Program-made: the position numbers and the translations under genes
Shown here: piece by piece, positions 1,754 to 7,897 of the stretch
How positions within the stretch are numbered: the stretch's first letter is position 1
Layout: every line of letters starts with the position of its first letter
IMG/VR virus record: IMGVR_UViG_2639763115_000003
Reading direction: 5' to 3' (one strand)
Source of the DNA: a virus
Lineage: Duplodnaviria > Heunggongvirae > Uroviricota > Caudoviricetes
DNA length: 8,358 nucleotides
The notes under the pieces: generated by a model
What the model saw: the letters and a program-made list of their open reading frames with translations, nothing else
Told to the model about the DNA's origin: nothing
Database searches by the model: none

Positions 1754-1872
1754 AACGCCTCCAGTTGTTTCTTTGCTGCTCTGATTAATTGTTTAACTCG
1801 GCGTGATAATTCAGATTCGTGCGGGTAGAAAGCGGACATGACGCCGCTACCAGCTAAAATATATTCATTCAT
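1738..1872 (-). CDS. cIII: cIII-like small protein (44 aa), putative FtsH inhibitor
   Basis: Hand-translated: MNEYILAGSGVMSAFYPHESELSRRVKQLIRAAKKQLEALCAMK. Resembles lambda cIII in its N-terminal IAG motif and central amphipathic ES..L..R..K.L region. Its ATG overlaps the stop of the HNH gene (TAATGA). Confidence 0.4.
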   Translation of the reverse strand: MNEYILAGSGVMSAFYPHESELSRRVKQLIRAAKKQLEALCAMK

Positions 1873-2384
1873 TATTTGCTCCTGTAGAATTCGCCGTGAT
1901 GCTTTCTGGCAAAGTCGCAGTAAGCTTTTTTGGCATCTTCTAATTCATTAAAGTACCCTAGATGTTTTTTCTTCCCGTTTAATTTCCCATAGGCAGCCCA
2001 CTTTCTACTTTCCTTCTTCCATGTGACTCCTTTGCAACCTGATTTGTTGAGGGTGTTTATTTTACTATTCATTGAATTCTGTGAGTAAGTTGCAAGCCTC
2101 AGATTGCAAATTCTGTTATCTGTCTTTATGCCATTTATATGGTCGATAATACCTTCAGGCTCAACACCGAAAGTGATAATCCATGCAAGTCTATGTGCAG
2201 CATAGTGTCTTCCGTTAATGAAAATCCTTAAGTAGCCGCTTGTTGTTATTGTTCCGGCAGTTCCACCTATCTTCCTTGCTCCATAAGATTTTAGCCATGT
2301 GAACTCACCAGAAATAGGGTTATATTTGACAACATTATTAATCTCACTTAGGGAAATTAATTCAAGAATCTTTATAAATGCCAT
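1872..2384 (-). CDS. HNH endonuclease with C-terminal AP2 DNA-binding domain (homing-endonuclease-like)
   Basis: The ORF-track 175-aa frame begins at a TTG; the ATG five codons in has an AGGA RBS 6 nt upstream, so I call the start at 2384. HNH-like core (GYLRIFINGRHYAAHRLAWIITFG...IDHINGIKTDNRICNLRLATYSQNSMN) followed by an AP2-like segment (GVTWKKESRKWAAYGKLNGKKKHLGYFNELEDAKKAY). The gene is visibly more AT-rich than its flanks. Confidence 0.75.
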   Translation of the reverse strand: MAFIKILELISLSEINNVVKYNPISGEFTWLKSYGARKIGGTAGTITTSGYLRIFINGRHYAAHRLAWIITFGVEPEGIIDHINGIKTDNRICNLRLATYSQNSMNSKINTLNKSGCKGVTWKKESRKWAAYGKLNGKKKHLGYFNELEDAKKAYCDFARKHHGEFYRSK

Positions 2385-2477
2385 TTTATATCCTATCAAC
2401 TGCGTTCATTAATCAGCGTTTACGCTCATGAATAAACACCTCTCGTGAAGCATTATTGGTATGCGGTAAAGCCGCGC

Positions 2478-3028: not shown

Positions 3029-3280
3029 TCAGGCAGCCTTGTTGTAAATGTTGCAGGTATCAAGTAAGTAATTAGATGGAGCGCCATAAATTATGAATTC
3101 ATCGTTTGTCGGGTCCATCTCCATCTCTTGGCCTATTGCCATTCTTGCGTCAGTGTCATCAGCGGCGAAGCATAAAACAGCCCACGCACCCATTGTTTTA
3201 AAAAGAACTGCAATTGGCTGTGGTTTTACTGAATTTGCGTTAGCGCGAAAATCATAAATCGCACTTTCATGAAATTCCAT
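3029..3280 (-). CDS. Hypothetical acidic protein (83 aa)
   Basis: ORF with GAGGTG RBS 4 nt upstream of the ATG. Net acidic. No family recognised. Confidence 0.55.
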   Translation of the reverse strand: MEFHESAIYDFRANANSVKPQPIAVLFKTMGAWAVLCFAADDTDARMAIGQEMEMDPTNDEFIIYGAPSNYLLDTCNIYNKAA

Positions 3281-3420
3281 ATCTCACCTCAAATAAGTGG
3301 TTTGCTGCCTAATTTCATTTTCTGGCGACCAACACAAGTCACACCCATTTCACTGCGTGGCTTGCGGTAGTAAAGATTGTGCCTGTCTTTTAACCACATC
3401 AGGCTCGGTGGTTCCTTCAC

Positions 3421-3477
3421 TTTCCACAGTCAAAGGAAATGGGTAGACTGTTGTTTCCACAGTCAAAAGAAGGGCTT
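3421..3477 (+). repeat. Two direct copies of TTTCCACAGTCAAA, 43 bp apart, upstream of the plus-strand small gene
   Basis: Exact 14-nt repeat at 3421-3434 and 3464-3477. Each copy holds a 9-mer matching the DnaA box TTATCCACA at 7 of 9 positions. The second copy ends 4 nt before the ATG at 3482. Confidence 0.5.
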
Positions 3478-3481
3478 TGTT

Positions 3482-3646
3482 ATGACAGATATTGTTAATC
3501 CTAAAACCAACCCACACGAAGCCGCTCAACAGATTATTGTTGAGCTTATCAGAGCCGGTAATCTTGCCCCTGGCATTGACGGAAAGCCAATCACAGTTGT
3601 TTATGAAAAAATTCTTGATGAGATTATCAGAATAAACAGTAAGTAA
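3482..3646 (+). CDS. Hypothetical small protein (54 aa) on the strand opposite the pL operon
   Basis: MTDIVNPKTNPHEAAQQIIVELIRAGNLAPGIDGKPITVVYEKILDEIIRINSK. ATG at 3482 with AGAAGGG about 8 nt upstream. The 89-aa track ORF begins at a TTG with no RBS, so the shorter form is preferred. Its stop abuts the stop of the convergent 97-aa gene (TAATTA). Confidence 0.45.
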   Translation: MTDIVNPKTNPHEAAQQIIVELIRAGNLAPGIDGKPITVVYEKILDEIIRINSK

Positions 3647-3940
3647 TTAAGAAAACAAAATTTCGAATGCCTGGCGGATGGTTGCAGCATCTTCGTTCGC
3701 CAGTTTTTTTCGTTCATCTGATGACATCGATAACAATGCATTTCTCTCAATCAATGTAGCCAGCAGTTTAGATGCTATATTTTGAACGTCAGGGCTTAAC
3801 TCTAAGAATTTATTTCGACTACGTTCGAGAATAAGTTGTGTAGCGGGTGTATCTTTTAACTCAGATATTTTTATGTCCAATACATCAAGCATTTCTTTCG
3901 TTTTCTCAATTAGTAATTGTTCAATACATGAAATATCCAT
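3647..3940 (-). CDS. Hypothetical protein (97 aa) immediately downstream of N
   Basis: Internal ATG at 3938-3940 with a GAGGT RBS lying inside the end of N; N stops 2 nt upstream. Preferred over the 125-aa track ORF, whose 5' end overlaps N. Predicted helical; no family recognised. Confidence 0.5.
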   Translation of the reverse strand: MDISCIEQLLIEKTKEMLDVLDIKISELKDTPATQLILERSRNKFLELSPDVQNIASKLLATLIERNALLSMSSDERKKLANEDAATIRQAFEILFS

Positions 3941-3942
3941 AA

Positions 3943-4215
3943 TTACCTCGCCGTCAGTTGTTTTGATTTCCGGTAGCCTGCCGCGTAAATGGCTACGTTT
4001 GGCAGGCAAATACTTCCACTGCATTCATCTGCCTTCTTGCAGCGAAGGCTTCCGAGTGATGCTGCTTTGTCTGCCCTGACGCAACCAGAGAGCTTTAGCG
4101 CAATTTTTCGCGCCAGTGCTTCATTACTGCGTCGCTCGGCAATAAGTTCTGCTCTGCGAGCTTTGTAGCGGCTTTTTGCCGTACCTTTGGATTCTTTCCA
4201 GACAATGGTTACCAT
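3943..4215 (-). CDS. N: N-type transcription antiterminator (phage 21-type arginine-rich motif)
   Basis: Contains GTAKSRYKARRAELIAERR, which matches my recollection of the phage-21 N arginine-rich boxB-binding peptide. The second ATG (MVTIVWKESKG...) has a strong AAGGAG RBS 7 nt upstream, so the start is called at 4215, not 4245. The nut sites on both sides have matching CUAACC hexaloops. Confidence 0.8.
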   Translation of the reverse strand: MVTIVWKESKGTAKSRYKARRAELIAERRSNEALARKIALKLSGCVRADKAASLGSLRCKKADECSGSICLPNVAIYAAGYRKSKQLTAR

Positions 4216-6893: not shown

Positions 6894-7001
6894 ATGAAAT
6901 CAAAAATCAAATCGCTACTGGTCGCTGGTTATAACCACGGCTGGTTAAGTATTTCGTTTGTCAATTTCTGGTTTAAAAATCTCAATCTGAGGGAATCATG
7001 A
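6894..7001 (+). CDS. Hypothetical small hydrophobic peptide (35 aa)
   Basis: Hand-translated: [44 protein letters not shown] 3 nt upstream. Its stop overlaps the ATG of the downstream primase-like gene (ATGA). Confidence 0.3.
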
Positions 7002-7897
7002 CGCCAAGTGAACTTAGCGACCTGCTTTGGGCGCAGGTTGACAGGGTGGCTCCGCACCTGTTGCCAAACGGCAAGAAAGAGGGGCATGAGTGGGTTGCCG
7101 GTAACGTCAACGGTGACAAGGGAAACAGCCTTAAGGTCAACCTTAGCGGCAAGAAAAAATGGGCTGATTTCGCTGAGGGAGACGGCGGTGACATGCTTGA
7201 TTTGTGGATGGCATGCCGTGGAATTAACCTGCATCAGGCTATGCAGGAAGCGAAAGCATTTCTCGGTATCAAGGATGACGATCACCATTTCGATGCCAAA
7301 CGTGAGAAGAAATTCTCCAGACCTGATCGCAAGAAAATCGCCCGCTACGTTACCAGAACAGAATCCCATCTTGAGTACCTGCAATCGCGTGGCATATCGC
7401 CAGAAGTCGTAAAGCGCTACGAGGTTGTCAGCGGCAAGGTGTGGAATGGAGAACGAGAACTGGATGCTCTGGTGATTCCGTACAAACGCGATGGTGAGTT
7501 GTTGCAGGTCAAGCGAATCAGCACTGAGCGCCCGGACGGGAAGAAAGTCATTATGGCAGAAGGTGATTGCGAACCTTGTCTGTTCGGATGGCAGGCTCTG
7601 GACGCTGGCGTGAGGGCGGTTGTACTTTGCGAAGGCGAAATTGATTGTATGAGCTATGCGCAATACGGCATCTCGGCGTTAAGGACGATTGGAGCAACTG
7701 CGACTCTTGGTGTATCAATGGGGCTTGAGGCTGGTTTTGGTGCAATTATGCGCTTGTATGAATCCAAAGCCGCAAGGGATATGCTTCTTCGTTTGGCTAA
7801 CACAAAAGCAGGAACACCAGCCTATGAAAGAGCGCTAAATAATGCTGCGAATGCTATACGTCCTATACTTGCAAGCCAAATTACAGCAGAACAATAG
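6998..7897 (+). CDS. Primase-like protein with a partial Toprim domain; probably truncated or fused at a deletion junction
   Basis: 299 aa. N-terminal primase-like region ([37 protein letters not shown]) and Toprim motif 1 ([18 protein letters not shown]) are present, but the expected downstream DxD motif is absent. The last 60 or so residues are Ala-rich and unrelated. No helicase gene follows. Confidence 0.6.

Follow-up and report, generated by a model that had tools for sequence, protein, structure and literature searches.

A small gene read against the pL operon of a lambdoid prophage remnant stands behind a predicted portable sieB-type promoter and converges on a candidate partner gene

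Introduction

Why should a gene of only 54 codons read against the early-left (pL) operon of a lambdoid prophage, with its stop codon set directly against that of a gene read the other way? The question is raised by an 8,358-nucleotide stretch of DNA (the window) from the Caudoviricetes record IMGVR_UViG_2639763115_000003, in which the 54-amino acid gene, here called X, lies on the plus strand at 3482–3646 and converges on a 97-amino acid gene, here called Y, on the minus strand at 3647–3940. An earlier reading of the letters of this window (the original prediction) had suggested that X could have a promoter of its own and be a gene of the lysogenic conversion or exclusion type, and that repeats in front of it are possible sites for a regulator, perhaps DnaA. 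Here we report that X belongs to a small orphan family of genuine protein-coding genes, that it stands behind a conserved and portable module homologous to the sieB promoter of phages lambda and P22, and that it is linked to Y. In the reading that we prefer, positions 3381–3940 are a two-gene accessory cassette, or moron, in the slot that holds sieB in lambda and P22, with X a putative exclusion factor and Y its putative antidote; drawn as it is from sequence and from analogy with P22, this reading as a whole has in our estimate a probability of roughly 0.45.

Results

X Lies in the Slot and Orientation of sieB

X is the sole plus-strand coding sequence that the Prokaryotic Genome Annotation Pipeline (PGAP) places among the genes of the pL operon, in agreement with the original prediction that no other gene is read against it. 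It lies in the slot between the ral-side genes and N and is directed against pL, as is sieB in lambda and P22. In lambda, sieB (34482–35036, plus strand) is met by the end of N (35037, minus strand), and the orientation against pL and the abutting stops are those found for X, whose stop codon (3644–3646, plus strand) adjoins that of Y (3647–3649, minus strand) exactly, with 0 nt of gap and 0 nt of overlap, as had been predicted. In ~2,000 E. coli genomes, the gene between the flanks of the locus bears the annotation super-infection exclusion protein B, and PGAP gives this name to neighboring alleles of the slot, the X allele being annotated as hypothetical. The X/Y cassette itself is present in only 6 of 5,426 complete genomes.

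The DNA upstream of X carries the likeness further. Positions 3357–3414 are nearly identical to a block that precedes sieB in lambda and P22 and hkaP in phage HK620. Downstream of this block lie two exact copies of TTTCCACAGTCAAA on the plus strand, copy 1 at 3421–3434 and copy 2 at 3454–3467, a close pair for which our own arithmetic gives a chance expectation of ~0.002 in 8.4 kb. The original prediction was right about the two exact 14-mers, although not in calling them tandem, as they are direct repeats with a 19-bp spacer and a 33-bp period. In the annotated P22 record (BK000583), the sieB promoter occupies 29690–29720 and the RNA starts at 29727. When the two regions are aligned, the –35 side of the P22 promoter falls on copy 1, which overlaps the predicted –35 region TTTCCA (3421–3426); the P22 –10 sequence TAAACT matches, column by column, the predicted –10 TAGACT (3444–3449), 17 bp after TTTCCA; and the P22 RNA start, 7 nt past its –10, corresponds to the start of copy 2. 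From this alignment, transcription of X is predicted to start near 3456, inside the range of 3440–3480 originally proposed for a plus-strand start, with copy 2 spanning this start and the first bases of the 5′ untranslated region. The upstream homology and the matching –10 and start positions identify the predicted promoter as one of sieB type, and so the proposal that X has its own promoter in a lysogen-type arrangement stands by homology, in that slot, orientation, and stops match those of lambda sieB and N and the upstream DNA can be aligned to the sieB promoter of P22.

P22, lambda, and HK620 have a direct repeat of their own at the same two positions, and the RNA start of P22 is the first base of its own second repeat. 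Their repeat is ACCCCTACAG, present twice, whereas the one found here is TTTCCACAGTCAA; the architecture is the same and the allele is different. Because these phages carry their own ACCCCTACAG repeats at the same positions, repetition of an element at –35 and +1 is a trait common to promoters of this type and comes in two sequence versions.

The Promoter Module Is Portable and Serves Many Cargos

Both repeat copies and TAGACT are invariant in eight loci of three genera (E. coli, Citrobacter, and Edwardsiella), all found through their proteins and not through the motif, in which the spacer bases differ and the Shine-Dalgarno sequence is conserved. Pattern scans revealed the module in genomes of Izhakiella, Trabulsiella, Pantoea, and Erwinia as well, and in IMG/VR contigs, 25 to 71 of them according to the portion of the pattern that had to be present. 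Where loci were ascertained through one copy, conservation of the other persists, with a core of TCCACAG(T/C)CAA; for copy 2, the core TCCACAGTCAA reaches at least 90% conservation among 55 sequences that were ascertained independently of it. The original prediction had let its case depend on whether the reading frame and the repeats are conserved in related prophages, and X homologues and repeats are indeed conserved across genera.

Conservation extends through a Shine-Dalgarno sequence of AAGGA type and ends just 5′ of the ATG. In the window this element is AAGAAGGG (3467–3474, plus strand), 7 nt 5′ of the start codon of X and the last conserved element of the cassette, and every cargo class retains AAGGA or AAGGG 6–10 nt before its ATG. 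Because spacers and downstream gene change around near-invariant copies and TAGACT, the module reads as a portable promoter and ribosome-binding cassette, with a mosaic joint that falls between the Shine-Dalgarno sequence and the ATG.

The cargos downstream of the module include relatives of X of 54, 57, 60, 64, and 67–69 aa and unrelated proteins, namely 80–86-aa coiled-coil proteins (loci L027, L032, L039, and L078), an 80-aa protein, 92–94-aa proteins (L048, L049, L056, L107, L108, L111, and L114), and 63–70-aa zinc-ribbon proteins (L073, L091, L113, L115, L123, L125, and L126). One of the 92–94-aa cargos gave a weak, sub-threshold match to GhoS (E = 0.006). Among the loci looked at for partners, small convergent partner genes were seen for the 84-aa and 92–94-aa classes (L027, L032, L039, L048, and L056). 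Since the cargo changes while the repeats stay constant, a regulator of the repeats encoded by the cargo is unlikely, which speaks against the original idea that the repeats might be operators of the 54-aa protein: they are invariant while the gene downstream is swapped among unrelated families. We infer that the 13-bp elements, embedded as a pair in the promoter, serve as sites for a factor not encoded by the cargo.

The Repeats Match DnaA Boxes at the Rate of Chance

The original prediction had also pointed to DnaA, whose binding to the repeats would couple expression of X to the DnaA status of the host. Taken literally, the match that it cited is there: CTTTCCACA and GTTTCCACA each agree with TTATCCACA in seven of nine positions, box positions 4–9 (TCCACA) are invariant in both copies, and a third match on the same strand, TTAACCACA, lies at 3390. 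As evidence it fails, as the window holds 24 matches to the DnaA box with up to two mismatches against 25.9 ± 5.0 in shuffled sequences. The match to TTATCCACA (or TTWTNCACA) is no better than chance, and conservation is not centered on the 9-mer but shifted 3′ of it; box positions 1–3 vary between loci, whereas GTCAA, outside the box, is conserved. This offset of the conserved core argues against DnaA as the function for which the repeats were selected, albeit it would be compatible with binding. With the homologous sieB-type promoters carrying the non-DnaA-like ACCCCTACAG at the same positions, we regard a role of the repeats as DnaA boxes as very improbable.

Further readings of the repeats were judged by eye, with consensus sequences for comparison. 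For a LexA box (CTGT-N7-ACAG) the spacing is wrong and conservation is lacking. Promoters for sigma-E, sigma-S, or sigma-54 are unsupported, as are integration host factor sites and a lambda Int arm-type site, of which only CAGTCA matches. A minus-strand promoter with TTGACT and a second promoter 3′ of copy 2 both have no conserved –10. A 59-aa minus-strand open reading frame over the repeats (3350–3529) was likewise set aside, its upstream part varying with the cargo.

X Belongs to a Small Orphan Family of Protein-coding Genes

The X protein (WP_000129979.1, hypothetical in PGAP) starts with ATG and is a predicted helical hairpin. A word-based search with it returned only three near-identical clusters. 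A profile search, which had been proposed as the way to place the protein, gave 21 matches among 1.84 billion representatives; ~14 of these are genuine small relatives and the others long, repetitive proteins. The family thus delineated comprises ~14 clusters at 50% identity, made up of small orphan proteins of 57–68 aa. Its members share the pattern M-S/T-D...NP...P..AA(Q/Y)Q...E(L/M)I(R/K)AG, followed by a second helix, and the motif NP..P..AAxQ..xELIRAG is retained at 24–61% identity. X also matches PHROG 27767 with an E value of 1e-9. For the 60-aa relatives, the ratio of nonsynonymous to synonymous polymorphism (pN/pS) is 0.108 (109 synonymous versus 44 nonsynonymous differences); four of the other five frames gave values above 1.7 and the fifth, antisense, gave 0.225. 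The 60-aa relatives are under purifying selection. Together with the homologues and the conserved Shine-Dalgarno sequence and ATG, this shows the small orphan family to which X belongs to be one of genuine protein-coding genes.

The AlphaFold2 model of X is a two-helix hairpin (helices 11–24 and 37–53) with a predicted local distance difference test score (pLDDT) of 79, for which Foldseek returned nothing below E = 3 in PDB or BFVD. Scans of X, Y, and their relatives against Pfam, NCBIfam, and PADLOC gave no match, PHROGs placed X and Y in unnamed families only, and profile searches of both proteins against PDB sequences gave only noise. In 50,697 phage records, no tblastn match to either protein was obtained, and the sole blastn match was a 74-nt stretch of the promoter in one Salmonella phage. 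A literature search for WP_000129979 found no mention.

Two side observations concern the gene itself. X contains an in-frame DNA repeat (3528–3553 and 3606–3631, plus strand; 81% identical, 78 nt apart) that gives (Q/K)I(I/L)xE(L/I)IR in both predicted helices, and other family members do not have it. On one contig (L030, from SRR9067158, 294–953), both repeats of the promoter and the –10 are mutated, and Y is intact, with three synonymous changes and one nonsynonymous change; the X side of this locus may be decaying, or the assembly may be poor.

Y Starts Directly after N and Is Inherited with X

Y (3647–3940, minus strand) encodes an acidic, all-helical protein and directly follows N on the pL transcript. 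PGAP gives it 125 aa. The 97 aa of the original prediction are the better call because the 28 additional residues are an alternate frame of the 3′ end of N and stand in front of unrelated reading frames as well (P0020 and P0024). The ATG at 3940 lies two bases past the stop of N and has a Shine-Dalgarno sequence, GAGG. The PGAP start for the gene after N is a recurrent start-site misannotation. A prefix of 23–28 residues from this N frame (3941–4024 in the window, minus strand) also heads the unrelated reading frames P0020, P0024, and P0014–P0019 elsewhere. The structural model of Y (pLDDT 59) was too poor for a structure search.

The 54-aa form of X is always accompanied by the 97-aa form of Y, in ten mosaic contexts. 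The partner of the 60-aa X is a Y homologue of 99–106 aa, ~30% identical, and the 3′ ends of that pair overlap by 14 nt. Opposite the 57-aa and 64-aa forms stand proteins of 54 and 58 aa that correspond to the C-terminal half of the 97-aa Y at 40 and 27% identity, respectively, and the segment of Y closest to X co-varies with the class of X. In every case, Y occupies the first or second place on the pL transcript. The pair does not have the features of a type II toxin-antitoxin system, its genes being convergent, under different promoters, and without a Pfam or PADLOC match.

In Edwardsiella piscicida (L025 and L026; 2940–3490), a 60-aa X and a 106-aa Y with the same promoter lie between cI and N instead of after N, a placement from which it follows that the pair moves as a unit. 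Expression of Y from pL would there have no need of antitermination.

The Two Transcripts Are Predicted to Overlap

A terminator-like element for the X transcript lies on the plus strand at 3671–3710 and consists of an 11-bp stem (3671–3681/3693–3703) and a U7 run (3704–3710), with a folding energy of –17 kcal/mol (z = –1.9). The hairpin begins 25 nt past the stop of X, and hairpin and U7 together lie 25–64 nt inside Y, where the U-run corresponds to the lysine codons of the sequence ERKK. Read from the minus strand, the stem has A residues in front of it and thus forms no terminator for pL transcripts. The 60-aa and 84-aa cargo classes have a similar hairpin and T-run 50–60 nt past their stops. 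An X transcript that ends here would be ~255 nt long and would overlap ~60 nt of Y, and every pL transcript passing Y is, by the layout of the locus, fully antisense to X and its promoter. The antisense overlap of the two transcripts that had been predicted from the abutting stops is therefore plausible, given the plus-strand hairpin and U7 inside Y and the read-through of the whole X gene from pL.

Two interleaved helices were found in alignments of the conserved upstream block (3381–3413, both strands): helix A pairs GCCTG (3381–3385) with CAGGC (3400–3404), and helix B pairs AACCAC (3392–3397) with GTGGTT (3408–3413). The helix block is also present upstream of sieB in lambda (L019) and P22 (L060) and of hkaP in HK620 (L130). 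In 44 distinct sequences, both helices are retained through compensatory changes, as in GCCGGG/CCCGGC in place of GCCTG/CAGGC for the one and CCACGC/GCGTGG, TCACGC/GCGTGA, CGCGC/GCGCG, and AACCACT/AGTGGTT among further pairs, with mean helix lengths of 5.6 and 5.4 bp against ~3.0 in shuffles. On the minus-strand pL RNA, the two helices would fold into a compact pseudoknot of H type whose loop 3 is A-rich, AAAAGA here and AUAAACAU in Citrobacter. One possibility is that the pseudoknot serves as a stable 3′ structure of a processed antisense RNA. Searches of Rfam gave nothing at the gathering score and nothing credible at E ≤ 1.

The Cassette Sits in a Remnant of a Lambdoid Prophage

The window is 100% identical to a segment of the chromosome of E. 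coli 2017-02-2CC in which PGAP recognizes the early region of a lambdoid prophage. Its minus strand carries ssb, a Rad52-type recombinase, kil (1601–1753, among the pL genes), an HNH endonuclease, a DUF2528 protein, and an 83-aa gene, and then rightward the 125-aa hypothetical gene, N, and cI; on the plus strand are cro, cII, O, and a toprim protein. The right flank of the cassette is the antiterminator gene N, of the P22 gene-24 type (3943–4215, minus strand; PGAP, and Pfam N_peptide with E = 5e-17). The left flank is a relic of the 3′ end of an N gene of lambda/21 type (3289–3420, minus strand, from the open reading frame list), ending in ...WLKDRHNLYYRKPRSEMGVTCVGRQKMKLGSKPLI*. Phages Gally and HK633 have a match to positions 3200–3374 at the 3′ end of their N genes, and intact N genes that end in ...GRQKMKGKSIxLI occur in L042, L047, and L056. 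The relic suggests that the cassette was recombined into an older, ancestral N gene. The C-terminal coding part preserved in the relic reads ...YYRKPRSEMGVTCVGRQKMKLGSKPLI*; its lambda/21 type contrasts with the P22 gene-24 type of the functional N.

The prophage is a remnant of ~13 kb in torS, with a tailspike and an acyltransferase gene on one side and a truncated exonuclease gene on the other, and therefore the element cannot be a functional phage. The tailspike gene and then the acyltransferase gene lie directly 3′ of the toprim gene (6998–7897, plus strand, and L131). The toprim replication protein has 299 aa here and 968 aa, with a weak LAGLIDADG match, in a related prophage (L003). The HNH endonuclease, which has an AP2-like domain (1872–2399, minus strand), lies between a cIII-like gene and the DUF2528 gene; it is missing at this place from most related prophages and resembles a homing-endonuclease insertion.

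Discussion

The locus is a variant of the known sieB-moron arrangement, with uncharacterized proteins and a recognizable portable promoter. X is in our view probably a real accessory gene that is independently transcribed from its sieB-type promoter; that X and Y act as exclusion factor and antidote is a more doubtful proposition, which we take from analogy and offer tentatively. The analogy is with the sieB/esc/sas region of P22, where, as Ranade and Poteete reportedly found in 1993, the lysogen produces SieB, Esc is protective for the phage itself, and translation is switched by an antisense RNA, sas. The sieB genes of P22 and lambda run against pL, like X, and converge with N, with stops that abut or nearly do so, and in all of them read-through from pL necessarily yields antisense RNA. 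The sas RNA of P22 is cited in a passage of PMC7067206. The proteins offer no such likeness, as SieB has ~190 aa and X is a soluble hairpin of 54 aa with no sequence or profile similarity to it. Esc is an in-frame internal product, whereas the candidate antidote Y is encoded by a separate convergent gene, and sieB has an exclusion phenotype, whereas an exclusion role of X is putative. Another parallel in layout is the hkaP/hkaQ pair of HK620. Here hkaP, on the plus strand and annotated as a putative superinfection exclusion protein, runs toward hkaQ, a small gene of the minus strand placed directly after N, and the same conserved upstream block stands in front of hkaP. The proteins of 164 and 120 aa are unrelated to X and Y, the repeat is that of sieB, and the function of hkaP is putative too.

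Prophage morons are autonomous units of promoter, gene, and terminator inserted in an operon, a concept that comes from the comparative genomics of HK97 and HK022. The X locus resembles them in having its own predicted promoter, Shine-Dalgarno sequence, and terminator-like hairpin, in lying antisense to a lytic operon, and in carrying a cargo that differs between otherwise similar phages. It differs from them in that the expression module is itself conserved and portable, with the joint exactly between the Shine-Dalgarno sequence and the ATG, and in that the cargo usually has a convergent partner gene. Such morons are discussed in PMC7067206. With lambda cII/oop and P22 ant/sar, X and Y share the face-to-face arrangement with overlapping 3′ ends in which one transcript can silence the other; unlike those systems, both partners encode proteins, and Rfam has no match at the locus.

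In the reading that we prefer, the sieB-related promoter (–35 region in copy 1, TAGACT, a start near 3456 in copy 2, and the Shine-Dalgarno sequence) would transcribe X rightward against pL. Since such a promoter would be independent of pL, X could be made in the repressed lysogen, from a transcript ending at the hairpin-U7 within Y. As the first gene after N on the pL transcript, Y would be made only when pL fires, which is upon induction or from an infecting phage. Firing of pL would run antisense through X and its promoter, and X would be shut down by convergent transcription and RNA pairing. X would thus be a lysogen-expressed factor that interferes with superinfecting lambdoid phages lacking the cognate Y, and Y the cognate immediate-early antidote by which a phage with the same cassette escapes. 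The combination of a protein with antisense control would mirror SieB, Esc, and sas in P22, and this logic would explain the paired diversification of the coding parts behind invariant control sequences.

Several points weigh against this proposal. The hexamers TTTCCA-17 bp-TAGACT are weak for sigma-70 (8 of 12 consensus positions) and are absent from the list of a consensus scan. Selection on the 54-aa allele itself is not demonstrated because the DNA of this subclass is almost invariant and its lone divergent copy, that of L030, has two synonymous and nine nonsynonymous changes along with mutated repeats. X resembles no defense family any more than it resembles SieB, and the element that carries the pair is a defective remnant. 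The core of the 99-aa Y of E. coli is also found fused to a different tail beside an unrelated 84-aa cargo, one 80-aa cargo is without any Y partner, and co-inheritance of X and Y could arise simply from their position between two conserved linkers for recombination, the promoter module on one side and the N 3′ end on the other.

These last points bear equally on the strongest competing account, which we consider possible, albeit less probable than the one preferred here, and in which X and Y are functionally unrelated. X would be a lysogen-expressed accessory gene with a host-directed or other role, Y an ordinary early accessory gene of pL, and their joint travel the outcome of recombination in conserved flanks. 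That both flanks are linker-like sequences common to many unrelated cassettes, and that the same promoter precedes at least five unrelated classes of small proteins, would fit such an account as well as the Y core beside a foreign cargo and the cargo without Y do. What it leaves unexplained is that nearly every cargo class has a small convergent partner of its own, that the pair was relocated as a unit in Edwardsiella, and that the X-adjacent segment of Y co-varies with the class of X. Were the two genes linked in function with the roles exchanged, Y would be a host-toxic early protein comparable to Kil and X a safety antidote made in the lysogen, the 3′ end of its mRNA being antisense to leaky Y message. 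The predicted X terminator inside Y, which would make the X mRNA complementary to the last ~60 nt of the Y coding sequence, and the place of Y right after N among pL genes that harm the host, such as kil, are in keeping with this. We think it unlikely nonetheless, given that the lysogen-expressed gene is the effector in the sieB precedent and that an antidote silenced by pL read-through just when Y is made would be counterproductive, unless that is the intended design.

Less credible still is an account in which the plus-strand unit acts only as RNA antisense to pL and Y, with the 54-aa reading frame untranslated or incidental. The antisense control cited for the P22 sieB region and the lack of measurable purifying selection on the 54-aa allele would agree with it; the conserved Shine-Dalgarno sequence and ATG, the amino acid motif kept across 24–61% identity, the low pN/pS of the 60-aa relatives (0.11, with four of the five other frames above 1.7), and the PHROG match speak for translation, and we give it very little weight.

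A bolder form of the exclusion reading, which we hold to be rather improbable, is that X and Y are one of a series of tiny, helical, cognate exclusion/antidote pairs that fall into diverged specificity classes and that recombination has placed behind an invariant, portable promoter, the twin 13-bp elements and the antisense pseudoknot being a control device shared by all cargos of the sieB slot. If so, the logic of SieB, Esc, and sas would be generalized to swappable cassettes of defense and counter-defense across prophages of the Enterobacterales. Even if our model is wrong, a real small gene, a corrected start for its neighbor, and a recognizable portable promoter are gained for annotation. 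If it is true, candidate exclusion/anti-exclusion pairs of 54–100 aa would be at hand that are compact and tractable, and the 13-bp motif would mark lysogen-expressed cargo in Enterobacterales prophages from sequence. The sieB slot would then be not the home of a single exclusion gene but a hot spot, in which one expression module presents many small prophage proteins with phage-borne partners.

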